Positions 6,663-28,979 of a stretch of DNA of 32,435 nt are shown piece after piece. Positions within the stretch are counted from its first letter, which is position 1; every line of letters begins with the position of its first letter. The stretch is from IMG/VR virus record IMGVR_UViG_2690316131_000024, one strand, 5' to 3'. The notes beneath the pieces are model-generated. The model was given only the letters and a program-made list of their open reading frames with translations. It was not told the DNA's origin and did no database searches. The translations under genes were made by a program, and so were the position numbers. Source of the DNA: a virus. Taxonomy: Duplodnaviria; Heunggongvirae; Uroviricota; Caudoviricetes.

Positions 6663-7262
6663 CTATTTGTCCCGGTTGGCTAAGGGATGACACAATTTAT
6701 TCTTTGTCGCTGATGAGGGAAATTTTTTATAGAGCGTGGACAGGCCAATATCAAAAATCAGCGCCACACGTTGACGAGATTCCCCCGCAGCCAGCAACCG
6801 TCCGACCTGCTCCCACTCACTCGCGGTGAGTTTCGGACGTCTGCCACCAATACGACCTTTGGCTCTGGCCGCTTCCAGTCCGGCGCGTGTCCGCTCGACA
6901 ATGAGTTCTCGCTCCATTTCAGCCAGGGCACCCATCACATGAAAGAAAAAACGCCCCATCGGCGTGCTGGTATCAATAGCATCCGTCAGACTGCGAAAAT
7001 TAACGCCGCGTTCGCGCAGTTCCTCAACCAGAATGACCAGATGCCGCATACTACGCCCCAGCCTGTCCAGCTTCCAGACTACCAGAGTGTCACCTGCTGA
7101 TAATGTTCTGAGCAGTTTTTTCAGTCCCGGTCTGTCGGACTTCGTGCCGCTGATTTTATCCTCAAAAATCCGCTCGCATCCTGCGCACTCCAGCGCGTTA
7201 CGCTGCAATTCCGTGTTCTGGTCATTTGTTGACACGCGTACATAGCCAATAAGCATGAGCAT
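6663..7262 (-). CDS. Serine DNA invertase (Gin/Cin/Pin/Hin family), copy 1
   Basis: N-terminus MLIGYVRVSTNDQNT with catalytic Ser motif, ...GRIGGRRPKL and a C-terminal HTH (ALIFDIGLSTLYKKF) typical of Hin-family invertases. First 193 aa identical to copy 2; reads 6 codons past the repeat boundary. True start may be the Met two codons in (7256). Confidence 0.88.
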   Translation of the reverse strand: MLMLIGYVRVSTNDQNTELQRNALECAGCERIFEDKISGTKSDRPGLKKLLRTLSAGDTLVVWKLDRLGRSMRHLVILVEELRERGVNFRSLTDAIDTSTPMGRFFFHVMGALAEMERELIVERTRAGLEAARAKGRIGGRRPKLTASEWEQVGRLLAAGESRQRVALIFDIGLSTLYKKFPSSATKNKLCHPLANRDK

Positions 7263-7330
7263 CCCCCTGAATAAAAACCGGAGATGATGCCAGTTGCCCG
7301 TTATCTCTGCATTTTCATAAACGTTGGTTT
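6683..7330. repeat. 648-bp direct repeat, copy 1 (invertase gene plus crossover site)
   Basis: Offset 1358 bp to 8041..8688; both boundary sequences were compared by eye, and the ORF translations on both strands inside the two copies are identical. Confidence 0.85.
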
Positions 7331-7337
7331 AAGAGCA
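7312..7337 (+). other. cix/gix/hix-like crossover site (site 2)
   Basis: TCATAAACG-TT-GGTTTAAGA; identity to the H-embedded site begins exactly at TTGGTTT, centred on the TT dinucleotide at 7324..7325. Confidence 0.7.
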
Positions 7338-7634
7338 AGCGGGCAGTACACCGATAATTTGTTATTTACAGGTCCTGATGGTCTTAAGATTCAGGTGTTT
7401 CGCCGGACGCTCGCAAATTTGACTACTGTCGGTGTAGTAAATTCTGTGCCAGTGACTTTCCCTGTCCCGTTCCCTGTTAATTGCTGGGGCGTTTTTTCTA
7501 CCAAATTAACATGGGTTCAGATAACTAACTCATGCGAGTGGGTAAGTAATACAGGATTTACCGCTCAGGTCATGATGAATATTGCTGTAAATACAAACAC
7601 CTCAGACGCTATGTTTTTAGCTATAGGATATTAA
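7324..7634 (+). CDS. Silent tail-fibre C-terminal cassette V1' (duplicate of the currently expressed H C-terminus)
   Basis: Translation LRASGQYTDNLLFTGPDGL...AMFLAIGY is identical to the last ~100 aa of H (10200..10510, minus strand). It has no N-terminal constant region and is only expressible after inversion. Confidence 0.8.
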
Positions 7635-7635
7635 T

Positions 7636-8040
7636 ATGAATCATTTTGTGTTCAGTCCATCTGAGTCCCGTTTTTATGCCATCGAGTGGCAGGCTGATTA
7701 TGTTGATAATAATTGTTGGCCACATGATGCCATTAACGTTAGTGACAGCATTTATTATGAGTTTTCCGGCACTCCCCCTACAGGTAAGCAACTTATAACT
7801 TTAAATAACATGCCAGCATGGGGTGATATTCCTCCACCTACACGAGAAGAATTAATTGTCGCTGCTGATGTGGAGAAGCAAAAAAGAATAGATTTAGCCA
7901 ATGATTACATGAACGGTAAGCAATGGCCTGGTAAAGCAGCTATTGGTCGTCTGAAAGGTGAGGAACTGGCACAATATAATTTGTGGCTGGATTATCTGGA
8001 CGCACTGGAGCTGGTCGATACCGCCAGTGCGCCAGATATT
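7636..8040 (+). pseudogene. Truncated duplicate of tail-fibre assembly gene tfa1 (tfa1'), fused by read-through into invertase repeat copy 2
   Basis: First 135 aa identical to tfa1 (9758..10198). Identity ends at ...ASAPDI at the repeat boundary; the last 11 aa of tfa1 are replaced by repeat-derived read-through up to 8187. Confidence 0.75.
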
Positions 8041-8620
8041 AGGGATGACACAATTTATTCTTTGTCGCTGATGAGGGAAATTTTTTATAGAGCGTGGACA
8101 GGCCAATATCAAAAATCAGCGCCACACGTTGACGAGATTCCCCCGCAGCCAGCAACCGTCCGACCTGCTCCCACTCACTCGCGGTGAGTTTCGGACGTCT
8201 GCCACCAATACGACCTTTGGCTCTGGCCGCTTCCAGTCCGGCGCGTGTCCGCTCGACAATGAGTTCTCGCTCCATTTCAGCCAGGGCACCCATCACATGA
8301 AAGAAAAAACGCCCCATCGGCGTGCTGGTATCAATAGCATCCGTCAGACTGCGAAAATTAACGCCGCGTTCGCGCAGTTCCTCAACCAGAATGACCAGAT
8401 GCCGCATACTACGCCCCAGCCTGTCCAGCTTCCAGACTACCAGAGTGTCACCTGCTGATAATGTTCTGAGCAGTTTTTTCAGTCCCGGTCTGTCGGACTT
8501 CGTGCCGCTGATTTTATCCTCAAAAATCCGCTCGCATCCTGCGCACTCCAGCGCGTTACGCTGCAATTCCGTGTTCTGGTCATTTGTTGACACGCGTACA
8601 TAGCCAATAAGCATGAGCAT
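8039..8620 (-). CDS. Serine DNA invertase (Gin/Cin/Pin/Hin family), copy 2
   Basis: 193 aa, identical to copy 1 over its whole length; its stop codon spans the repeat boundary. Confidence 0.88.
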   Translation of the reverse strand: MLMLIGYVRVSTNDQNTELQRNALECAGCERIFEDKISGTKSDRPGLKKLLRTLSAGDTLVVWKLDRLGRSMRHLVILVEELRERGVNFRSLTDAIDTSTPMGRFFFHVMGALAEMERELIVERTRAGLEAARAKGRIGGRRPKLTASEWEQVGRLLAAGESRQRVALIFDIGLSTLYKKFPSSATKNKLCHP

Positions 8621-8688
8621 CCCCCTGAATAAAAACCGGAGATGATGCCAGTTGCCCGTTATCTCTGCATTTTCATAAACGTTGGTTT
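8041..8688. repeat. 648-bp direct repeat, copy 2 (invertase gene plus crossover site)
   Basis: See copy 1; the repeat ends at TTGGTTT, after which V1' (aagagc...) and V2 (gggaga...) diverge. Confidence 0.85.
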
Positions 8689-8695
8689 GGGAGAA
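8670..8695 (+). other. cix/gix/hix-like crossover site (site 3)
   Basis: TCATAAACG-TT-GGTTTGGGA; same left half as site 2, right half belongs to V2. Confidence 0.7.
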
Positions 8696-9184
8696 GGCTC
8701 TGCATTACCGGTTGGGGTGCCTGTTCCGTGGCCTTCAGCCACTCCGCCAACAGGCTGGCTGAAATGCAACGGTGCCGCTTTTTCTGCTGAAGAATACCCG
8801 GAACTGGCAAAGGCTTATCCGACAAATAAATTGCCTGATTTACGTGGTGAGTTTATTCGTGGCTGGGATGACGGGCGTGGTATTGATGCTGTACGTGCCT
8901 TGCTAAGTCTTCAGAATGGAGGAGTGGAATCACACACCCACCAAGGGCAGCTCTTCAGAGTTAGTGATTATCGTACAAAAGAAATACCAGCATCAGAAGT
9001 TATGGGAAGAGGATATATTGCAAGCCTGACGCCGGGTGCTGATAGCCCACTTGATTTTGATGATTATTCTGTATCTTCTAATCCAAATGGATATTTTGTC
9101 GGGAATCAGAGAACAACAGCATATGGGATAAATGAAACCCGTCCACGGAATATTGCATTTAACTATATCGTGAGGGCTGCATAA
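8684..9184 (+). CDS. Alternative tail-fibre C-terminal cassette V2 (receptor-binding segment)
   Basis: In frame with the crossover site; translation GEGSALPVGVPVPWPS...GEFIRGWDDGRGID...NETRPRNIAFNYIVRAA is a typical P2/Mu-type fibre C-terminus. No start of its own; expressed only when joined to H by inversion. Confidence 0.8.
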   Translation, partial: GLGEGSALPVGVPVPWPSATPPTGWLKCNGAAFSAEEYPELAKAYPTNKLPDLRGEFIRGWDDGRGIDAVRALLSLQNGGVESHTHQGQLFRVSDYRTKEIPASEVMGRGYIASLTPGADSPLDFDDYSVSSNPNGYFVGNQRTTAYGINETRPRNIAFNYIVRAA

Positions 9185-9786
9185 TGGATAACGCTGTATT
9201 AAATAGCGAGTTTATTGCTACAAAGGCGGGGAATATTACCGTCTATAACTATGATGGCGAAACACGGGAATATATTTCCACATCAACTGAATATCTTGCC
9301 GTTGGTGTCGGTATCCCTGCATATTCCTGTTTAGATGCCCCTGTCACATACAAAGCTGGTTATGCAATCTGCCGATCTGTAGATTTTAACTCATGGGAAT
9401 ATGTGCCAGACCATCGCGGTGAAATCGTCTTTAGCACCGAAACAGGAGAATCAAAAGAAATCACAGTTCCGGGTGATTACCCTGATAATACAACCACTAT
9501 CGCCCCGTTAACGCCATACGATAAATGGGATGGTGAGAAATGGGTGACGGATACCGAAGCACAGCATAGCGCCGCAGTAGATGCAGCAGAAGCACAGCGC
9601 CAGTCACTGATTGATACTGTAATGGCTTCAATCAGTCTGATTCAGCTGAAATTGCAGGCCGGACGTAAACTGACGCAGGCAGAAACAACCAGCCTTAACA
9701 CTGTGCTGGATTACATTGACGCGGTGACAGCAACAGATACGAGCACCGCGCCGGATGTCATCTGGCCTGAACTGCCGGAGGCGTAG
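9184..9786 (+). CDS. Tail-fibre assembly chaperone for V2 (tfa2), 200 aa
   Basis: Immediately follows V2 with stop/start overlap; conserved Tfa C-terminal region; converges with tfa1 with 3' overlap. Confidence 0.8.
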   Translation: MDNAVLNSEFIATKAGNITVYNYDGETREYISTSTEYLAVGVGIPAYSCLDAPVTYKAGYAICRSVDFNSWEYVPDHRGEIVFSTETGESKEITVPGDYPDNTTTIAPLTPYDKWDGEKWVTDTEAQHSAAVDAAEAQRQSLIDTVMASISLIQLKLQAGRKLTQAETTSLNTVLDYIDAVTATDTSTAPDVIWPELPEA

Positions 9787-10198
9787 GCCATTCAATATCT
9801 GGCGCACTGGCGGTATCGACCAGCTCCAGTGCGTCCAGATAATCCAGCCACAAATTATATTGTGCCAGTTCCTCACCTTTCAGACGACCAATAGCTGCTT
9901 TACCAGGCCATTGCTTACCGTTCATGTAATCATTGGCTAAATCTATTCTTTTTTGCTTCTCCACATCAGCAGCGACAATTAATTCTTCTCGTGTAGGTGG
10001 AGGAATATCACCCCATGCTGGCATGTTATTTAAAGTTATAAGTTGCTTACCTGTAGGGGGAGTGCCGGAAAACTCATAATAAATGCTGTCACTAACGTTA
10101 ATGGCATCATGTGGCCAACAATTATTATCAACATAATCAGCCTGCCACTCGATGGCATAAAAACGGGACTCAGATGGACTGAACACAAAATGATTCAT
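9758..10198 (-). CDS. G: Tail-fibre assembly chaperone (gpG-like, tfa1), 146 aa, currently in the expressed orientation
   Basis: Directly downstream of H with start/stop overlap; position equivalent to P2 G. Confidence 0.85.
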   Translation of the reverse strand: MNHFVFSPSESRFYAIEWQADYVDNNCWPHDAINVSDSIYYEFSGTPPTGKQLITLNNMPAWGDIPPPTREELIVAADVEKQKRIDLANDYMNGKQWPGKAAIGRLKGEELAQYNLWLDYLDALELVDTASAPDIEWPTPPAVQAR

Positions 10199-10199
10199 A

Positions 10200-11336
10200 T
10201 TAATATCCTATAGCTAAAAACATAGCGTCTGAGGTGTTTGTATTTACAGCAATATTCATCATGACCTGAGCGGTAAATCCTGTATTACTTACCCACTCGC
10301 ATGAGTTAGTTATCTGAACCCATGTTAATTTGGTAGAAAAAACGCCCCAGCAATTAACAGGGAACGGGACAGGGAAAGTCACTGGCACAGAATTTACTAC
10401 ACCGACAGTAGTCAAATTTGCGAGCGTCCGGCGAAACACCTGAATCTTAAGACCATCAGGACCTGTAAATAACAAATTATCGGTGTACTGCCCGCTTGCT
10501 CTTAAACCAAGGTATGTGAGAAGACCAGCTACATCCTTTCCACTCAAATTAGTCAGCGTCTCATCCAGTGGCTGCTTACCTGACAGCGCATTGTTAATGG
10601 TGGTGCTGAATTTCGGGTCATTGTTAATGGCCGCGGCAATTTCTTTCAGTGTGTCCAGCGTGTCTGGCGCGCCGTTAATCAGAGCGGTAATAGCGGCCTG
10701 AACAAACTCAGTGGTCGCAATCCGCGTGGTGTTATTTCCTGCGGCAGGCGTCGGCGCTTTTGGTTCTCCGGTAAATGTCGGATTATGTTTCTGCGCATAC
10801 TGGGTATGAGGATCCTGTGCGACAATGTGGTTTCTCATCTGGTCATCCACATACAGCTTTAATTCCAGGACTTCATCATCCACGTATTTACGGGTCGCCA
10901 GTACCACCGACGGGTCGATTTTCAGCGTAATAGCTTCGGTATTCGTGACAACCAGAATCATGCGGATAGTCTGGGTACGACCACTGCCTTCCTGTAACTG
11001 CGGTTTGTACGTTTCCGGGCAGTTCGCCACCGCAATGAGTACGCCTTCATCATCATAAAGCCCAATCTCACGGATCCAGAATCCGCCCTCGTTCTCAGGG
11101 ATGATTTGCTCCGCAATAATCTGGCTCTGGTTGTTCGGGTCAACACTCAGAAGATTCAGCGGCGCGATGCGTTTCTGGTTAATCAGTTTTGTCTGTGCCG
11201 GGTCTGGTGTCGGCAAGACACCATTCGCATCACCAACGGCCATTTGCGTCAGATTCAGCTTACTGCCGAGCATCGTCGCGTTAGCCAGCCGTGCTGCGCC
11301 CTGATTAGTCAGAATGGCGTAGTATTTCACTGTCAT
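10200..11336 (-). CDS. H: Tail fibre protein H (constant N-terminus plus invertible C-terminal segment V1), 378 aa
   Basis: N-terminus MTVKYYAILTNQGAARLANA...MAVGDANG resembles the P2 H / Mu S N-terminus; the C-terminal ~100 aa lie beyond the embedded crossover site at ~10510. Confidence 0.88.
   Translation of the reverse strand: MTVKYYAILTNQGAARLANATMLGSKLNLTQMAVGDANGVLPTPDPAQTKLINQKRIAPLNLLSVDPNNQSQIIAEQIIPENEGGFWIREIGLYDDEGVLIAVANCPETYKPQLQEGSGRTQTIRMILVVTNTEAITLKIDPSVVLATRKYVDDEVLELKLYVDDQMRNHIVAQDPHTQYAQKHNPTFTGEPKAPTPAAGNNTTRIATTEFVQAAITALINGAPDTLDTLKEIAAAINNDPKFSTTINNALSGKQPLDETLTNLSGKDVAGLLTYLGLRASGQYTDNLLFTGPDGLKIQVFRRTLANLTTVGVVNSVPVTFPVPFPVNCWGVFSTKLTWVQITNSCEWVSNTGFTAQVMMNIAVNTNTSDAMFLAIGY
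10497..10522 (-). other. cix/gix/hix-like crossover site embedded in H (site 1), inverted relative to sites 2 and 3
   Basis: On the minus strand TCACATACC-TT-GGTTTAAGA; right half identical to site 2, left half from the H constant region, i.e. the hybrid sites expected after past inversion. Confidence 0.7.
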
Positions 11337-20263: not shown

Positions 20264-22036
20264 ATGACCATCACCACAGACACCACTCTTTTACACGACC
20301 CGCGTCGTCAGGCGGCGCTGCTGTACTGGCAGGGGTTTTCCGTGCCGCAGATTGCCGCCATGTTGCAGATGAAACGCCCGACGGTGCAGAGCTGGAAACA
20401 GCGCGACGGCTGGGACAGCGTTGCCCCCATCAGCCGTGTCGAAATGAGTCTGGAAGCGCGGCTGACCCAGCTCATCATCAAACCGCAGAAAACCGGCGGT
20501 GACTTCAAGGAAATTGACCTGCTCGGACGCCAGATTGAACGACTGGCACGGGTCAACCGTTACAGTCAGACCGGCAACGAGGCAGACCTTAATCCGAACG
20601 TCGCTAACCGCAACAAAGGCGGGCGTCGCAAACCGAAAAAGAATTTTTTCAGTGACGAGGCCATCGAAAAGCTGGAGCAGATTTTCTTTGAGCAGTCTTT
20701 CGAATATCAGTTGCACTGGTATCGCGCCGGGCTTGAGCACCGCATCCGCGATATCCTGAAATCCCGCCAGATTGGCGCGACGTTTTATTTTTCCCGCGAG
20801 GCGCTGCTGCGCGCCCTGAAAACCGGTCATAACCAGATTTTTCTGTCGGCCAGTAAAACGCAGGCGTATGTGTTCCGCGAATACATCATCGCCTTTGCCC
20901 GGCTGGTTGACGTTGACCTGACCGGTGACCCAATCGTCCTGGGCAATAACGGCGCAAAACTGATTTTTCTCGGCACCAACTCCAACACCGCGCAGAGCCA
21001 TAACGGCGACCTGTACGTCGACGAGATTTTCTGGATCCCGAATTTTCAGGTGCTCCGTAAGGTGGCATCAGGTATGGCCTCACAGAGTCACCTGCGCTCG
21101 ACCTATTTCTCCACCCCGTCCACGCTGGCGCACGACGCCTACCCGTTCTGGTCCGGTGAACTGTTTAACCGGGGACGCGCCAGCGCCGCCGAACGCGTGG
21201 AAATCGACGTCAGTCATAACGCCCTTGCCGGTGGGCTTCTCTGTGCGGACGGCCAGTGGCGGCAGATTGTCACCATTGAGGACGCCCTGAAAGGCGGCTG
21301 CACATTGTTCGACATTGAGCAGCTTAAACGCGAAAACAGCGCCGACGATTTTAAAAACCTGTTCATGTGTGAATTTGTTGACGACAAGGCATCGGTGTTC
21401 CCGTTCGAGGAGCTGCAACGCTGCATGGTCGACACGCTGGAAGAATGGGAAGACTATGCGCCGTTTGCCGCAAATCCGTTCGGCTCACGTCCGGTATGGA
21501 TTGGTTACGACCCGTCACACCGTGGCGACAGCGCCGGATGCGTGGTACTGGCACCGCCGGTGGTGGCCGGTGGCAAATTCAGAATACTTGAGCGTCACCA
21601 GTGGAAAGGCATGGACTTTGCCACCCAGGCGGAATCCATCCGCAAACTCACCGAAAAATACAACGTCGAATACATCGGAATTGATGCCACCGGCCTCGGT
21701 GTCGGCGTGTTCCAGCTCGTGCGCTCGTTCTATCCCGCCGCGCGCGATATCCGCTACACGCCGGAAATGAAAACCGCAATGGTGCTCAAGGCAAAAGACG
21801 TTATCCGCCGTGGCTGTCTGGAATATGACGTCAGCGCCACCGACATCACCAGCTCGTTTATGGCTATCCGCAAGACCATGACCAGCAGCGGACGCAGTGC
21901 CACCTATGAGGCCAGCCGCAGCGAGGAAGCCAGCCACGCCGACCTCGCCTGGGCGACCATGCACGCCCTGTTAAATGAGCCACTCACCGCCGGTATCAGC
22001 ACCCCGCTGACATCCACCATTCTGGAGTTTTACTGA
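20264..22036 (+). CDS. P: Terminase ATPase (large) subunit P, ~590 aa
   Basis: Start taken at MTITTDTTLL, preceded by GAGGT 7 nt upstream; gives the P2 gpP length; stop overlaps the Q start (ATGA). Confidence 0.88.
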   Translation: MTITTDTTLLHDPRRQAALLYWQGFSVPQIAAMLQMKRPTVQSWKQRDGWDSVAPISRVEMSLEARLTQLIIKPQKTGGDFKEIDLLGRQIERLARVNRYSQTGNEADLNPNVANRNKGGRRKPKKNFFSDEAIEKLEQIFFEQSFEYQLHWYRAGLEHRIRDILKSRQIGATFYFSREALLRALKTGHNQIFLSASKTQAYVFREYIIAFARLVDVDLTGDPIVLGNNGAKLIFLGTNSNTAQSHNGDLYVDEIFWIPNFQVLRKVASGMASQSHLRSTYFSTPSTLAHDAYPFWSGELFNRGRASAAERVEIDVSHNALAGGLLCADGQWRQIVTIEDALKGGCTLFDIEQLKRENSADDFKNLFMCEFVDDKASVFPFEELQRCMVDTLEEWEDYAPFAANPFGSRPVWIGYDPSHRGDSAGCVVLAPPVVAGGKFRILERHQWKGMDFATQAESIRKLTEKYNVEYIGIDATGLGVGVFQLVRSFYPAARDIRYTPEMKTAMVLKAKDVIRRGCLEYDVSATDITSSFMAIRKTMTSSGRSATYEASRSEEASHADLAWATMHALLNEPLTAGISTPLTSTILEFY

Positions 22037-23070
22037 TGAGCAAGAAAAAAGGGAAAACACCGCAACCTGCGGCAAAAAAAATGACCGCCAGCGCCCCGAA
22101 AATGGAAGCATTCACCTTTGGCGAGCCGGTGCCGGTACTCGACCGCCGTGACATTCTGGATTACGTCGAGTGCATCAGTAACGGCAGATGGTATGAGCCA
22201 CCAGTCAGCTTTACCGGTCTGGCAAAAAGCCTGCGTGCTGCCGTGCATCACAGCTCACCGATTTACGTCAAACGTAATATTCTGGCTTCAACGTTTATCC
22301 CGCACCCGTGGCTTTCCCAGCAGGATTTCAGCCGCTTTGTGCTGGATTTTCTGGTGTTCGGTAATGCGTTTCTGGAAAAGCGTTACAGCCCCACCGGTAA
22401 GGTCATCAGACTGGAAACCTCACCGGCAAAATATACCCGCCGTGGCGTGGAGGAGGATGTTTACTGGTGGGTGCCGTCCTTCAACGAGCCGACAGCCTTC
22501 GCGCCCGGTTCCGTGTTTCACCTGCTGGAGCCCGATATTAATCAGGAGCTGTACGGCCTGCCGGAATATCTCAGCGCCCTTAACTCTGCCTGGCTGAATG
22601 AGTCGGCCACGCTGTTCCGCCGCAAGTATTACGAAAACGGCGCACATGCCGGATACATCATGTACGTTACCGATGCCGTGCAGGATCGCAACGATATCGA
22701 AATGCTTCGCGAAAACATGGTTAAGTCGAAAGGCCGCAATAACTTTAAAAATCTGTTTCTCTATGCCCCGCAGGGGAAAGCCGACGGCATTAAAATTATC
22801 CCCCTCAGTGAAGTGGCAACGAAGGACGATTTTTTTAATATCAAAAAAGCCAGCGCCGCTGACCTGCTGGACGCGCACCGCATCCCCTTTCAGTTGATGG
22901 GCGGCAAGCCGGAGAACGTCGGGTCGCTGGGTGATATTGAGAAAGTGGCAAAGGTCTTTGTCCGCAATGAGCTTATCCCGCTACAGGACAGGATCCGCGA
23001 GATAAACGGCTGGCTCGGTCAGGAGGTCATCCGCTTTAAAAACTACTCACTGGACACTGACAACGGCTGA
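22036..23070 (+). CDS. Q: Portal (capsid) protein Q, 344 aa
   Basis: 344-aa ORF, same length and position as P2 gpQ, last gene before cos. Confidence 0.9.
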   Translation: MSKKKGKTPQPAAKKMTASAPKMEAFTFGEPVPVLDRRDILDYVECISNGRWYEPPVSFTGLAKSLRAAVHHSSPIYVKRNILASTFIPHPWLSQQDFSRFVLDFLVFGNAFLEKRYSPTGKVIRLETSPAKYTRRGVEEDVYWWVPSFNEPTAFAPGSVFHLLEPDINQELYGLPEYLSALNSAWLNESATLFRRKYYENGAHAGYIMYVTDAVQDRNDIEMLRENMVKSKGRNNFKNLFLYAPQGKADGIKIIPLSEVATKDDFFNIKKASAADLLDAHRIPFQLMGGKPENVGSLGDIEKVAKVFVRNELIPLQDRIREINGWLGQEVIRFKNYSLDTDNG

Positions 23071-23239: not shown

Positions 23240-23258
23240 GTGCTTTCCCCGCCTCGCC
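23240..23258 (-). other. cos: cos site (19-nt cohesive-end sequence, P2 type)
   Basis: gtgctttccccgcctcgcc is the reverse complement of GGCGAGGCGGGGAAAGCAC, which I recall as the P2 cohesive end; located just beyond Q as in P2. Confidence 0.8.
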
Positions 23259-23501
23259 CGCCCGCTTCATGGGGCGGTTTTAATGCAGTTGCACAGCCAT
23301 GTCAAAGCCATGTCAACACTAGCAGTATGTAAAAAGAGCAGATATAAGAAACAAATGCAGTTTCATGCAAAAAGCGACACACATCATGTCATGAAACAAA
23401 GCCGCTAATGAACACTTGCTTTGGTTATCTTAAGGTTTTATCTTCAGCCTAACCTATTGATTGCATGAAACTAAAATGAACTCTCAGCAAGGAACGACTA
23501 T

Positions 23502-25460
23502 ATGTCAGATTTCGAAATTAAAATTGATTTGAATGTGCTAAATCACCTAGGGATGAGTCTCTATTCCAATACTCCCGCGGTACTAACTGAGATTATATCA
23601 AATGCATGGGATGCAGATGCTCAAAATGTAGAAATTACACTTGATGTTGAGAAAGGAGAGGTCATCATTAAAGATGATGGTCATGGCATGTCTAAAGATG
23701 ACATTATTAATAAGTTCCTAAAAGTCGGTTATGCTCGCAGGGAACATGGAAGAGCCAAAAGCGATCATCTAAAACGTCAAGTTATGGGCAGAAAAGGTAT
23801 TGGTAAGCTTGCCATGTTTTCACTTGCCAATAAAATCCAAGTTTATTCGTACAAAAAGGGGGAACAGCCTCAGGCCTTTGAGGTAGATGTCAAAGATTTA
23901 CAGCAAAGTATCAAAGAATCAAAAAACTATATTGCTGACTCCCTTGAAATACCCGAAAATCTTGCTTACGGCACTACAATTAAATTATTTGAACTAAAAA
24001 AAGCCATTGATAGGACTCAAACTTACCTCAGAAAGCGAATAGCTCGTCGATTTAGCATTATTGGCCCCAACCATAACTTTACAGTTAAAATTAATGGGAC
24101 CGATATTACACCGGCAGATAGAGATTTCCTTTCAGATCTCGAGTTCATTTGGGAATTTGGCGAATCCGACCCTGAAAGGATAAAATCCTGCACAAACATC
24201 ACACAAAAAAACATATTACCAAATACTATTACCTTTGAAGGAAAAGATGTAAAAGTTAGTGGGTACATTGGCAGTGTAGTTAAGCCATCACAGTTAAAGA
24301 AAGACCCTGAAATATCTAACAACAGCATTACTGTAATCTCTCACGGACGTGTTTTTGAGGAGGACATATTATTAGAATTTGGAAGTGCTAAAGTATTCAC
24401 CAATTATCTGGTCGGTGAAATAGTCGCCGATTTTCTAGATGATAACGAAAAGCCTGATATGGCAACATCTTCTCGTCAAAAACTACAACAGAATGATCCA
24501 AGATACCCTGTACTTAAAGGTTTTCTGGAAAGAACGCTACAACTAATCGATAAAGATTGGGATAAATGGAGACGCGAAAAAGGAGTAAATGAAGTTAAAA
24601 GCAATACTCCAATAGTAAGTGAATGGCTGAATTCTCTCAAAAAACATGAGAGAGAAAGTGCCGAAAAGTTAATTGGACGAGTAAACACATTCCGTTTTTC
24701 TGGTAATGAGGAAGAACAAAAAGCAGCAAGAAAAACCGTATTAAAAAATACGGTATTAGCCTTTGAAAGACTTAGAATTCAAGACAACCTTGATGCATTA
24801 GATAAAATAAGCAACCTTCAATCAGAAAATTTTAAAGATGTATTTGCATCTGTCAATGACATTGAAGCAAGCATGTTTTATGAAATTACTTCGCAACGCC
24901 TTAAAGTAATTGAAAAATTCCAAAAAATAACTGATGAAAATCAGCTTGAAAGAGCTGTACAAATGTATTTATATGATCATTTATGGTTATTGGATCCTTC
25001 ATGGGAAAGAGTCACAGGCACATCTGTTATGGAGCAAACATTGACCAAGGAACTAAAACAGATAAACCCTGATGCTGCTAGCGGTGCTCGTATTGATATC
25101 GCTTTCAAAACCGTTTCTGGCAAGCATGTAATTATTGAGATGAAACGACCTAAAGTGCACCCAGATATAATGAACCTAGTCGCACAAGGTAATAAATATG
25201 TACAGGCAACGACACAATGGTTCTCCAATAACCCTAAAAATTGCCCAGGTGGAAATATACCGCATATAGAAGTAATATTCCTGGTTGGCTCTGGATATTT
25301 ACAAGAGAACCAACACTTTATAAATATGCAATTACTTTCTATCAATGGAAAAATATTGACATATAATGACCTAATCGTGCAATCAAAACAAGCCTATGCT
25401 GAATATCAAGACAAAAAGAATGATGCAGCTAGAATTATGAAAATAGTTGAGGGAATCTAA
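23502..25460 (+). CDS. GHKL-family ATPase (MutL/MORC/Hsp90-like Bergerat fold) with C-terminal PD-(D/E)xK-like nuclease motif, 652 aa; candidate defence/restriction protein
   Basis: N-box EIISNAWDA, G1 box IKDDGHGM, G2 box GRKGIGKLAMFS and YGTTIKLFEL in canonical order within the first ~170 aa. Near the C-terminus ARIDIAFKTVSGKHVIIEMKRPK fits D-x(n)-E-x-K. AT-rich gene with an AAGGAA RBS 7 nt before the ATG. Family placement is from motifs only. Confidence 0.7.
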   Translation: MSDFEIKIDLNVLNHLGMSLYSNTPAVLTEIISNAWDADAQNVEITLDVEKGEVIIKDDGHGMSKDDIINKFLKVGYARREHGRAKSDHLKRQVMGRKGIGKLAMFSLANKIQVYSYKKGEQPQAFEVDVKDLQQSIKESKNYIADSLEIPENLAYGTTIKLFELKKAIDRTQTYLRKRIARRFSIIGPNHNFTVKINGTDITPADRDFLSDLEFIWEFGESDPERIKSCTNITQKNILPNTITFEGKDVKVSGYIGSVVKPSQLKKDPEISNNSITVISHGRVFEEDILLEFGSAKVFTNYLVGEIVADFLDDNEKPDMATSSRQKLQQNDPRYPVLKGFLERTLQLIDKDWDKWRREKGVNEVKSNTPIVSEWLNSLKKHERESAEKLIGRVNTFRFSGNEEEQKAARKTVLKNTVLAFERLRIQDNLDALDKISNLQSENFKDVFASVNDIEASMFYEITSQRLKVIEKFQKITDENQLERAVQMYLYDHLWLLDPSWERVTGTSVMEQTLTKELKQINPDAASGARIDIAFKTVSGKHVIIEMKRPKVHPDIMNLVAQGNKYVQATTQWFSNNPKNCPGGNIPHIEVIFLVGSGYLQENQHFINMQLLSINGKILTYNDLIVQSKQAYAEYQDKKNDAARIMKIVEGI

Positions 25461-25466
25461 TTATAC

Positions 25467-25490
25467 CCCCCCTGTTTTTTGACAGGGGGG
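25467..25490. terminator. GC-rich hairpin between the convergent ATPase and methyltransferase genes (candidate bidirectional terminator)
   Basis: cccccctg-ttttttga-cagggggg, a perfect 8-bp stem between the two stop codons (25460 and 25503). Confidence 0.55.
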
Positions 25491-25502
25491 ATGACATAAG
25501 TT

Positions 25503-26552
25503 TTAAATATTCATTTCTGACAAATGTTTTAAAATAGTTTCACCTACGACCTCACCAAGCCTAACAGGAACAGCATTACCTATTAAACGCGCAACTGTTC
25601 TCATTTCAATTTTTACATCATCAGGCCAAAACTCATACTTTTCTGGGAATGACTGTAATAGCGCAGCCTCTCTTAAACTTAATGCTCTATTTTGGACAGG
25701 GTGCCCAAAGCGTCCATTCCCATATCCAATACATTGAGTTGTAATTGTCGGTCCAAGTTTATCCCAACACATTCTCCCATATACAGCAGTATATGTAGAA
25801 CCACTTTCTTTTGTATGACATTTTGCTCTTAGCTCTTCTGGCCAATCACGCCATGTTCCACCAGGTTTTGATGCCATTATTCTTTTTATATTAATATCAG
25901 ATAATGATGCAGAGCGATGTAGTTTATCTCCAGCGTGAACAGCACCGGCACTAATTTCAGGAAGATTACCGATTATATCTCGCACCGTTTTATAATCATT
26001 CTTCTCATGAGTTGGTGGAATTATTTCTATTTCTCCATATTTTGATGCCAATAACACTAATCTTGAACGACTTTGTGCCATTCCATAGTCTGGACAAAAC
26101 ACCACCCCATACCAAACAAAATAGCCATCATTTTTAAGAGACTTAATGAAGTCCTTAAAAACCTTATGATTCACCACTCGGGGAACGTTTTCCATTGTAA
26201 TAATATCTGGCTTTGCAAATTTAATTTGCTTAGCAAAGCTATAAAGCAAAGACCATCTTTTATCTTTTGAACGTACTACCCCTAATTTAGCACTATTGGT
26301 ATAGCTTGAAAAAGGTTGGCATGGGGCACAACCAGCCAAAACTCGAACCTTCGCTCCTTCGAAATATTTAACTAATTCGCCGTCCTCAATGTCTGTAACA
26401 CTTTTCTGGACAAAGAGTGATTTATTATTTGTCTCATAGGCAAATCGACAGGCTGCATCTATATCATAACCTGCAACTACATTAAGCCCCGACTTCTGAA
26501 GACCGTGAGTCAAGCCACCCGCGCCACAGAATAAATCAACAACCTTAATCAA
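25503..26552 (-). CDS. DNA (cytosine-5)-methyltransferase, ~349 aa
   Basis: All core m5C-MTase motifs in order: DLFCGAGG (I), GCAPCQPFS (IV), ENV (VI), QSRSRLV (VIII), GNAVPV (X). Start proposed at TTG 26550..26552 preceded by AGAAGGAGG (6-nt spacer); the 383-aa ORF-track version extends into the promoter region. Confidence 0.85.
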   Translation of the reverse strand: MIKVVDLFCGAGGLTHGLQKSGLNVVAGYDIDAACRFAYETNNKSLFVQKSVTDIEDGELVKYFEGAKVRVLAGCAPCQPFSSYTNSAKLGVVRSKDKRWSLLYSFAKQIKFAKPDIITMENVPRVVNHKVFKDFIKSLKNDGYFVWYGVVFCPDYGMAQSRSRLVLLASKYGEIEIIPPTHEKNDYKTVRDIIGNLPEISAGAVHAGDKLHRSASLSDINIKRIMASKPGGTWRDWPEELRAKCHTKESGSTYTAVYGRMCWDKLGPTITTQCIGYGNGRFGHPVQNRALSLREAALLQSFPEKYEFWPDDVKIEMRTVARLIGNAVPVRLGEVVGETILKHLSEMNI

Positions 26553-26572
26553 GATAAACCTCCTTCTAATGC

Positions 26573-26649
26573 TGTGGGGATTGTAGCATTGTTCTTTCTC
26601 ATCATCGATGTTTACTTGATGCTTGATTTGTGAATACAAAATCAAGCAT
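26573..26649 (-). promoter_or_regulatory. Candidate promoter and operator-like palindrome upstream of the methyltransferase
   Basis: Minus-strand extended -10 TGcTACAAT (+ coords 26580..26588) about 28 nt upstream of the TTG start. An 11-bp inverted repeat atgcttgattt-N9-aaatcaagcat at 26619..26649 abuts a TTGACA hexamer on the minus strand. Confidence 0.4.
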
Positions 26650-26663
26650 GTCAATCATTATTG

Positions 26664-28979
26664 TTAGTTTGTTTCAAATCCCGCCCAACCATCAGAAATC
26701 GGATATGAAAACGTTTTCCCATCATAATTTACGGTCGCGCCACGCGCCAGCGCCTCAAGCTCCCATCGCTGCGGCCTGATACCGTTCTGAGCAAGGTCAA
26801 CGCGGATACGGGTAATTTGCATTCTTTCCGACCGGGTCAGTCTGGCCGATGGTGCAATTTCATGTGGTTTTAACGGGCTTCCGTTTCTTTGCTGACGACT
26901 TGGCGTTCTCCGACCGTGTTTTAATGCACCTCTGAGCGCCCTCACGACCTCCGGGTCACTCCATTCGATAACACCGTCATCAACCAGATTAAGCACTGCT
27001 GCGGCGTGCTCAGAAGGTGTGGGAGCCGGTAACGAAGTATCACCACCGGTGAGTTTTCCACAGTTATTGACAGGACTCCGAGGCGCGGCGATGCCGCTTT
27101 TTAAAGTCAAAGGCTCAACGACCGGAACTTTCGGCACAATGCGCCAGTCCGTCGTTCTGGTGATATGAATATGACGCGCGCCGAGATGCGGCGCGTAAAT
27201 GCCGACCACTCTCTCGACTTCTTCCTCGTACTCGTTAACGTCATCCGACAGACTACGGGCGACCCTGACAGTCTGACAATCGCGCGGGACATTTGCCCCG
27301 CCCTGCGCGCTGATATACAGCGCAAAATCACCACTGTCTGCGGCGGCGCGTGCAGCCTCGACGCGCTCGTCAAACTCATCAGCAATGCTGACGCCGCGAG
27401 GCAATTTGCGTAGTTCACGGTAAGCCCCCATTGTCGGCAGGCCAACCGTTTTAAATTGCGGAATGCGCCACGTTGACGCCCATGCGGTAACAGCCGCTGC
27501 AGTGTCTTTCAGCGGCCTGCCGGTGTCGTTATCGAGCTGACCATCCAGTGCATAGCCGTCGATGTTTTTTGAAATGTATTTCGCGATATATCCCGCAGCA
27601 CCGCCCCGGTTAAGGTGTTTTGCCTGAAAACGGTTTCGCGCGGCTCCTCTTTCGTCGCCATCCTCTTTGAGCGCATAGCGACGCATGATTTCGATAATCT
27701 GGTTACGCTGGCGTGGATGACAAAAAAGCATCATATGCCAGTGCGGCGTTCCGTCGTGGTGTGGCTCGACGACTCGCAAACCGTAGACCTGTAAATCATT
27801 ATCCTTGAATGCCGTGCGCATCAGGCTCCAGATACGGCAGAGATAACGCTGCGCATCCTTTGGATTAAATGCCTCATCGTTCCAGCCGTGATTAAGCTGA
27901 ACGGTTTTACTTTCGCCTTTTCCGACCTGACGTGTCGGGTGATACTTTGACGGCGCGGTCAGCGTGATAAACATCCCCACATCACCCTCTGCGGCGGCGT
28001 AACGCTCAATACCGGCAATGGTGTTCATCAGCTCCATCCGGCGAATTTCAGGATTAGAAATACTGCCCATCACCTTACTGATAAGGTCGATGCGCTCGCC
28101 GGTTTCCCTGTTTTCAAGGTCACACGATTTAAGAAATTCCAGATTTGCCTGGCGGCGCGCACGCACATCACGAATGGCGTGTTTACTGGCATAAGGAGAA
28201 CGGTCTTTATTGACCTCCCCGACAGCTATCAGTAACGCCTCATGCCAGCGCATACGCTGGCCTTTAAGCTGATGAGTCCACCACTCATCGTTAAACAGGC
28301 GGGCAATGGCAGAATATGCCTGCCTCGTGGTCATCTGTCCTTTACGGTATTTTTTCCAGTAGAGCGGGGAAATATTGAAAGCACGTGCAGCGCCAGCAAC
28401 ATGACCATACAGGTGAGCCTGCGCCTCATCCGTAAACAGCGATTCTTTTTCACCATGCGCATCAACCCATGCATCGCAGAGTTCCTCATACATCATGAAA
28501 AGCTGCGATGAGATACGGGCGGCAAACTTTTTCAGCTCCTTGTCATTCATTCCCGGCAGGCGCGCATAGTGGTCACGCTCTGCCAGAAACAGCAACGACG
28601 CGTCGGTGTTCATTTCATGGCGCTGATTCACACGCTCAATGCGCGGCCATAAACGACGCTGAAAAGTAGATGTGAGGAAATAAAACCCGTGCACCGGGCT
28701 TTTATTGCGCCGGATGTAGTCATAGCGTGAAGTAAACAGCGAGCGCAAAAAATAAGGCAGGCGGTTAATCGTGGATAAAACACCTTGCACCTGACGCATC
28801 TCGTCACGTGTAAGAGGTCTTTCGCGCCCGACAGCCTCGCGTGGCGCGTTCCATGCATAAGCACCGGTAAACGCCTTACCGGTGCCTGCGGTAAATGCTG
28901 ACGGAGGGACAAAACGCCCGGAGGCTTTAACGGCCATATGAGCCAAAAGCCTCTGAACAACGCTTGCTGAGTTGCTCAA
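26664..28979 (-). CDS. A: Replication initiation protein A (rolling-circle nicking endonuclease), 771 aa
   Basis: 771-aa ORF (P2 gpA is slightly shorter; true start may be the internal Met at MAVKASGRF) with a central HxH and paired-Tyr region (GAAGYIAKYISKNIDGY), in the P2 gene A position. Confidence 0.88.
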   Translation of the reverse strand: MSNSASVVQRLLAHMAVKASGRFVPPSAFTAGTGKAFTGAYAWNAPREAVGRERPLTRDEMRQVQGVLSTINRLPYFLRSLFTSRYDYIRRNKSPVHGFYFLTSTFQRRLWPRIERVNQRHEMNTDASLLFLAERDHYARLPGMNDKELKKFAARISSQLFMMYEELCDAWVDAHGEKESLFTDEAQAHLYGHVAGAARAFNISPLYWKKYRKGQMTTRQAYSAIARLFNDEWWTHQLKGQRMRWHEALLIAVGEVNKDRSPYASKHAIRDVRARRQANLEFLKSCDLENRETGERIDLISKVMGSISNPEIRRMELMNTIAGIERYAAAEGDVGMFITLTAPSKYHPTRQVGKGESKTVQLNHGWNDEAFNPKDAQRYLCRIWSLMRTAFKDNDLQVYGLRVVEPHHDGTPHWHMMLFCHPRQRNQIIEIMRRYALKEDGDERGAARNRFQAKHLNRGGAAGYIAKYISKNIDGYALDGQLDNDTGRPLKDTAAAVTAWASTWRIPQFKTVGLPTMGAYRELRKLPRGVSIADEFDERVEAARAAADSGDFALYISAQGGANVPRDCQTVRVARSLSDDVNEYEEEVERVVGIYAPHLGARHIHITRTTDWRIVPKVPVVEPLTLKSGIAAPRSPVNNCGKLTGGDTSLPAPTPSEHAAAVLNLVDDGVIEWSDPEVVRALRGALKHGRRTPSRQQRNGSPLKPHEIAPSARLTRSERMQITRIRVDLAQNGIRPQRWELEALARGATVNYDGKTFSYPISDGWAGFETN

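Follow-up and report, generated by a model that had tools for sequence, protein, structure and literature searches.

We analyzed the two genes that lie between the cos site and gene A in a viral DNA of 32,435 nucleotides (IMG/VR record IMGVR_UViG_2690316131_000024; this whole stretch is hereafter the window), which is a P2-like (Peduovirus) prophage of Escherichia coli. The two genes very probably constitute a restriction-modification cassette of Type II class that belongs to the HgiDII/BbrUII family and forms accessory cargo of the prophage. One gene (23502..25460, + strand) encodes a 652-amino acid (aa) restriction endonuclease of the BbrUII/HgiDII family, also known as paraMORC3, and the other (25503..26552, - strand) encodes a 349-aa C5-cytosine DNA methyltransferase that is M.HgiDII-like and is presumed to be the cognate protective methylase. 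The assignment is built on what was observed of the family, folds and catalytic motifs of the proteins, of the conserved association of nuclease and methylase genes, and of the site that they occupy. An earlier note on this DNA had held that the pair could not be assigned to a named system and might be undescribed. That view has to be given up, since the pair is already known as a kind (NCBIfam NF050001 at 751 bits, the REase_II/MTase_II models of PADLOC, and paraMORC3) and already annotated as an instance (the labels in GenBank PV340563 and a table of Rousset et al., 2022).

Bases 1–23000 of the window share 96–97% identity with P2-like coliphages over 89–93% of their length. The left landmark of the insertion site is a P2-type cos site (23240..23258, no strand assigned), identical to the 19-nt cosR of P2 (NC_001895), which follows the portal protein open reading frame (ORF; 22036-23070). 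On the right stands the ORF of the Phage_GPA replication protein (gene A, 26664-28979); both ORFs were identified by profile match. Identity to P2 is unbroken up to position ~23287, other P2-like phages align to ~23311, and similarity returns at gene A. The interval between cos and gene A holds two convergent ORFs, 23502-25460 (+) and 25503-26654 (-), with their stop codons separated by 42 bp, and no further genes. The GC content of the cargo is ~0.37 (0.32–0.40 across 23400–26600), compared with 0.52–0.59 in the portal and gene A regions on either side. The description of two convergent AT-rich genes at this site in the earlier note was accurate in coordinates, content, orientation and composition.

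P2 itself has tin and old here, with gene A/orf91 on one side and cos on the other. The placement of the cargo at the P2 tin/old position, and the view of this position as a variable hotspot, were borne out by the P2 map and by the published survey of the locus, which established the P2 cos-gpA locus as a defense hotspot (Rousset et al., 2022, PMC9122126); anti-phage systems validated by experiment are enriched there. The cargo belongs to this hotspot both by its position between gpQ/cos and gpA and by its foreign composition. The pair shares its insertion point (cos/gpQ-gpA) with P2 old/tin, but the proteins and their mechanism are unrelated, old being an ABC-ATPase/TOPRIM nuclease.

The 652-aa protein matched the NCBIfam equivalog model NF050001, "BbrUII/HgiDII family restriction enzyme", with 751.4 bits (cut-off 550; E 9e-226). 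The match spans residues 4–651 of the protein and positions 1–658 of the 659 of the profile. PADLOC recognized the same protein as REase_II (2e-91), and Pfam recognized the GHKL domain alone (HATPase_c_3, E 2e-25). The protein is composed of a GHKL ATPase domain (~aa 1–165), a putative Hsp90/MutL-like middle domain (~166–330), a helical linker (~331–475) and a NucS/Shedu-like PD-(D/E)xK nuclease domain (~476–652). In an alignment of 39 homologs with 44–82% identity, the ATP-binding residues E30, N34, D37, D58-G60-G62 and G96-K102 were invariant, as were the C-terminal nuclease residues D532, E546-x-K548 and Q562xxxY566; these include the GHKL motifs and the D...ExK motif that had been read from this single protein. 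When the AlphaFold2 (AF2) model was compared with known structures, it aligned with the N and M domains of Hsp90, GRP94 and TRAP1 over 380–450 columns (E 1e-13 to 1e-11); no sequence-level match to an S5 family was obtained and no catalytic lysine was identified in it.

The C-terminal domain is a NucS/Shedu-like PD-(D/E)xK nuclease. In the nuclease-fold comparison the tabulated figures were 8.0 for NucS, 7.9 for Bacillus cereus Shedu SduA, 7.7 for the FokI cleavage domain and 7.3 for E. coli SduA, and likeness at the fold level was seen to 8ti8 and 8ps4. The Pfam SduA_C model gave no match in the 652-aa protein even at E 10, and PADLOC gave no Shedu match. Among the 39 orthologs, SduA_C was matched at E 0.01 or better in seven, one of which exceeded the gathering score (28.1 vs. 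27). When PDB sequences were searched with the single protein and with the family profile, all matches fell on GHKL domains (HtpG, Hsp90 and MutL), and the C-terminal half had no match. A profile of the C-terminal domain gave only chance matches against the PDB, and the family profile recovered no Shedu chain by sequence.

Assignment of the protein to a housekeeping family, which the earlier note had named as the outcome that would speak against a defense module, was not what the models returned. Scores lay between 20 and 31 bits, against cut-offs of 180–937: MutL models gave 20–26 bits against these cut-offs and HtpG gave 31 against 371, in each case over the GHKL segment only. Matches to DISARM DrmMII, Druantia DruM and MZA MzaB (PADLOC/NCBIfam) were likewise set aside as generic m5C (5-methylcytosine)-methylase or GHKL likeness; the locus consists of two genes and has none of the further signature genes by which those systems are defined.

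The methylase is complete. PF00145 was matched end to end (E 1e-55, profile positions 1–323 of 324), in keeping with the complete m5C methyltransferase described in the earlier note, TIGR00675 scored 129.7 against a cut-off of 100.65, and PADLOC recognized the protein as MTase_II (3e-88). Its translation contains FCGAGG, APCQPFS, ENV, QSRSR and GNAVPV, which make up a complete m5C catalytic domain. Translation likely begins at a TTG (26552) that is preceded by an AGGAGG Shine-Dalgarno sequence, and the protein begins MIKVVDLFCGAGG. The start assigned mechanically, a TTG at 26654, is unlikely; RefSeq and the annotation of phage PhiR44_1 both place the start at 26552. The target-recognition region (aa ~211–290) is 50–80% identical to that of the window methylase across 61 methylases, and its conservation equals that of the catalytic motifs, which argues for one shared specificity and is consistent with a cognate restriction-modification pair. 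M.HgiDII is an experimentally characterized GTCGAC m5C methylase and M.BbrUII is its homolog (PMC5867850). By analogy with this prototype, GTCGAC is probably the target of the methylase described here.

To determine how firmly the two genes are associated, we compared loci at three distances. Among 5,426 complete E. coli genomes the cargo was present in 30; it was always chromosomal, both genes were intact at ≥99.9% identity, and no partial copies were found. In E. coli PCN033 (NZ_CP006632) the adjoining portal gene carries an annotated frameshift, yet the nuclease and methylase genes are both intact, suggesting that the cassette may outlive the phage. The convergent pair was also found at the same Q-A locus in a P2-like prophage of Proteus mirabilis, at other positions in P2-like prophages of Shewanella baltica and Gallibacterium, and, outside phage DNA, in the chromosome of an Alcanivorax. 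In a P2-like prophage of Vibrio cholerae the nuclease gene lies at the contig end, with its neighbor out of view. The positions taken within P2-like prophages are Q-A, cI-int and cI-tail gene D. The presence of the cassette at three positions in P2-like prophages of Escherichia, Proteus, Shewanella, Gallibacterium and Vibrio suggests that it moves between distinct hotspots.

The family is large: >5,900 relatives were found, archaeal ones included. The distant set comprised 80 full-length relatives among the matches listed, with 34–43% identity, from species-representative genomes of many bacterial phyla and archaea. A methylase was adjacent in 64 of these 80 listed loci, 60 of them with 43–58% identity to the window methylase and within 446 bp, and four with a divergent m5C methylase. 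In these listed loci the methylase is mostly upstream of the nuclease and co-directional with it. The pairwise identities of nucleases and methylases were correlated (r=0.41), and 0 of 999 permutations reached this value, indicating co-divergence. Some of the solo nucleases among the listed matches adjoin GmrSD or HNH type IV genes.

Several paralogs were seen in one sponge-associated genome. The chromosome OY282369.1, a metagenome-assembled genome (MAG) of an 'uncultured Cenarchaeum sp.', carries at least five full-length nuclease paralogs, most of them with no close methylase homolog adjacent. MAGs of other sponge symbionts (Poribacteria, Multivorans) are also among the matches listed.

The two genes have been named before. 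In the genome of phage PhiR44_1 (GenBank PV340563) a locus with 99.5% identity is labeled "ParaMORC3" and "Dcm protein"; a literature search found no paper on this phage. RefSeq names the nuclease as WP_001279022 and the methylase as WP_000598783, and both accessions appear in the P2 hotspot locus list (Table S5A of Rousset et al., 2022, PMC9122126), although the main text of that article, the part consulted, yielded no phenotype for the pair. The paraMORC3 family was defined by Iyer, Abhiman and Aravind (2008, PMC2292703) in a purely computational study that proposed DNA looping or clamp action. The 652-aa protein has the defining features of this family, namely intact N-terminal GHKL motifs and a C-terminal restriction-endonuclease-fold domain with E-D-ExK. 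It also shares with the family the RecB-like QxxxY motif, its putative middle domain would correspond to the S5-type domain of the family, and no architectural difference was noted; the family is linked to DNA methylases and is prevalent in proteobacteria. The Type II systems HgiDII of Herpetosiphon and BbrUII/BbrII of Bifidobacterium breve UCC2003 are the prototypes after which NF050001 is named; with them the present pair shares the N-terminal GHKL domain, as described for R.HgiDII, and an adjacent M.HgiDII-like m5C methylase. The present pair differs from these prototypes, which were compared by family model and description, in its E. coli host, its P2-like prophage carrier and its convergent gene order. 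Transposon sequencing (Tn-seq) of B. breve UCC2003 showed that its BbrII methylase gene is essential, which was taken in that study as proof of an active cognate endonuclease (PMC5514069).

Three other explanations were weighed. The first, and the main rival, is that the 652-aa protein is a Shedu-type (type I-D) innate nuclease, which would respond to a sign of infection (DNA ends, for instance, or a phage product) regardless of methylation; the methylase would then be a separate gene, either orphan or phage-protective. A described protein of this kind is VcSduA (Adams et al., 2025, PMC12137116), which earlier annotation had called paraMORC3 and which gives defense on its own; mutation of its ATPase glutamate or its nuclease lysine abolishes defense, and a dimeric clamp is predicted. 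VcSduA and Shedu type I-D have in common with the 652-aa protein a GHKL ATPase and a PD-(D/E)xK nuclease that is similar in fold to DUF4263/SduA_C, residues E30 and K548 here corresponding to E27 and K557 in VcSduA, and GHKL-containing proteins have been placed in Shedu type 1D (Gu et al., 2025). The same architecture in a single-gene defense system, the ortholog that passes the SduA_C threshold, and the family members that have no methylase and stand beside type IV genes all fit this explanation. As judged from its published description, however, VcSduA is a single gene for which no methylase is mentioned, whereas the 652-aa protein is paired and scores as a restriction endonuclease (REase_II and NF050001), with neither an SduA_C nor a PADLOC Shedu match. 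A single-gene system is also at odds with the E. coli genomes, in which the two genes never occur apart, and with the adjacent methylase in 64 of the 80 listed distant loci, its conserved target-recognition region and its co-divergence with the nuclease. The essential BbrII methylase points the same way. We consider a Shedu-type nuclease acting independently of the methylase unlikely. The V. cholerae homolog of the 652-aa protein (P0047, 61% identity) was considered as a candidate for VcSduA itself and rejected, since it adjoins cI in a P2-like prophage.

The second explanation, a selfish addiction module in which post-segregational killing stabilizes the prophage and defense is a side effect, would account for a pair that is always inherited intact, for its spread through P2-like prophages of five genera at three positions, as is usual for restriction-modification cassettes that are mobile, and for a composition foreign to the phage. 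The enrichment of the hotspot in experimentally validated anti-phage systems speaks for defense instead; the present data do not by themselves separate the two, and we regard addiction as the primary role as quite improbable. The third, a Type IV-like nuclease that depends on modification and has an orphan methylase as its neighbor, which the earlier note had offered as an alternative, draws on the occurrence of both m5C methylases and modification-dependent nucleases in defense islands and on the solo family members next to GmrSD or HNH type IV genes, but is scarcely credible: no modified-base reader domain (SRA, EVE, YTH, DUF262) and no Mrr was detected with Pfam/NCBIfam profiles, a nuclease that attacks m5C would kill a host bearing the linked methylase, a methylase of the same family is adjacent and co-diverging in 64 of the 80 listed loci, and the finding that the methylase of B. 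breve is essential runs counter to what such a nuclease would predict. The evidence thus favors the other possibility raised in that note, an ATPase-coupled nuclease with a protective methylase.

Several observations weigh against the restriction-modification reading or narrow it. Our literature search found no experiment on this E. coli system, and recognition of GTCGAC is carried over from the prototype. About nine of the 80 listed distant homologs have complete flanks and no adjacent methylase, and VcSduA works alone in E. coli with no reported toxicity (PMC12137116); these solo homologs and VcSduA mean that the fold alone does not imply methylation-controlled restriction. Cleavage by the BbrII endonuclease was not directly shown, according to PMC5514069. 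R.HgiDII was noted in 2008 as a GHKL-containing Type II enzyme with a C-terminal domain that was then unassigned; the fold result obtained here, together with the Shedu literature, now assigns that domain. The published accounts of M.BbrUII disagree, since it is called an N6-adenine (m6A) methylase in PMC5829577 and is aligned with M.HgiDII as a 5mC enzyme in PMC5867850. Finally, GTCGAC occurs three times in the window against 10.7 expected, but we rejected this depletion as evidence of specificity: no fewer than nine further palindromic hexamers show depletion of equal or greater strength, which makes the deficit uninformative.

From the restriction-modification reading, and by analogy with the characterized relatives, we infer a recognition sequence, an ATP-gating step and a defense phenotype. 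The methylase would mark host and prophage DNA, including the GTCGAC sites of the window, at a short target, probably GTCGAC. The GHKL ATPase and the Hsp90/MutL-like middle domain would probably dimerize into an ATP-operated clamp, a role for the ATPase that is suggested by its relatives. The NucS/Shedu-like nuclease (D532, E546, K548 and Q562) would then cut unmethylated incoming DNA, and a lysogen would in this way be protected against other phages. The cassette may also stabilize the prophage. The methylase gene is the next gene downstream of gene A and has the same orientation, so read-through from the early operon could, speculatively, supply methylase early in a new infection.

A bolder proposal is that the label "Type II" is a misnomer, and that HgiDII/paraMORC3 enzymes are ATP-gated clamp nucleases on a Shedu core, which would require ATP hydrolysis for cleavage, to close the clamp or to let sites communicate, and would leave the distinction of self from non-self to the cognate m5C methylase. 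This last trait would be all that sets them apart from standalone GHKL-Shedu proteins like VcSduA. We put this forward tentatively, judging it somewhat more likely to be wrong than right. It would explain why BbrII endonuclease activity was not shown under standard conditions, and, if true, it would make HgiDII/paraMORC3 an evolutionary and mechanistic bridge from Shedu-type innate nucleases to restriction-modification.

As a genome feature the cassette is routine, another restriction-modification cassette at a phage locus already known to shuffle defense genes, and its recurrence in five genera at three positions illustrates the movement of such cassettes between phage hotspots. The residual interest lies in the control of a restriction nuclease by a GHKL ATPase and in the relation to the methylase-free VcSduA. 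A member from E. coli in an inducible P2-like phage would offer a convenient model for the enzymology of the family.

The DNA around and between the two genes has features of possible regulatory significance. A cargo-specific leader (23288..23501, + strand) lies 5' of the restriction gene and is presumed to contain its promoter. It includes a 12-nt perfect inverted repeat, AGTTTCATGCAA / TTGCATGAAACT (23359-23370 / 23461-23472), with arms 90 nt apart, and a AATGCAnnTnCATGCA-like motif that is likewise present upstream of P2 old and of the homologous gene in the Proteus prophage. This stretch (23355-23472) may act as a promoter or other control element that is conserved in the cos-proximal hotspot. 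A sigma-70 promoter scan gave no convincing match for either cargo gene and no strong consensus match in the leader. A 41-aa ORF at 23283-23408, annotated as hypothetical in PhiR44_1, was left out of the system; it falls in the cos-proximal non-coding region and nothing was found in its support.

A GC-rich hairpin (25467..25490, no strand assigned) occupies the space between the convergent stop codons. Its 9-bp arms, CCCCCCTGT / ACAGGGGGG (25467-25475 / 25482-25490), enclose a 6-nt loop, and, as read from the sequence, it is a candidate bidirectional terminator. At the other end of the cargo, 111 bp separate the stop of gene A and the methylase start (26553..26663, - strand). This region contains a TTGACA hexamer, the AGGAGG ribosome-binding site and an 11-nt perfect inverted repeat, ATGCTTGATTT / AAATCAAGCAT (26619-26629 / 26639-26649), which has a 9-nt spacer and overlaps the hexamer. 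From these elements, the region may serve as the gene A terminator, as a putative methylase promoter or operator, or as both.

A separate feature lies elsewhere in the window, at 6663-11336. It contains two serine-invertase genes (Resolvase and HTH_7 domains; 6663-7262 and 8039-8620, both on the minus strand), which have in common a direct repeat (≥300 nt, 100% identity) and flank C-terminal cassettes of a tail fiber together with tail-fiber assembly genes. A 729-nt inverted repeat with 99% identity (7312-8040 vs. 9794-10522) copies the 3' end of the tail-fiber gene and its assembly gene. The region looks like a Gin/Cin-type invertible host-range segment with a duplicated invertase-plus-cassette unit.

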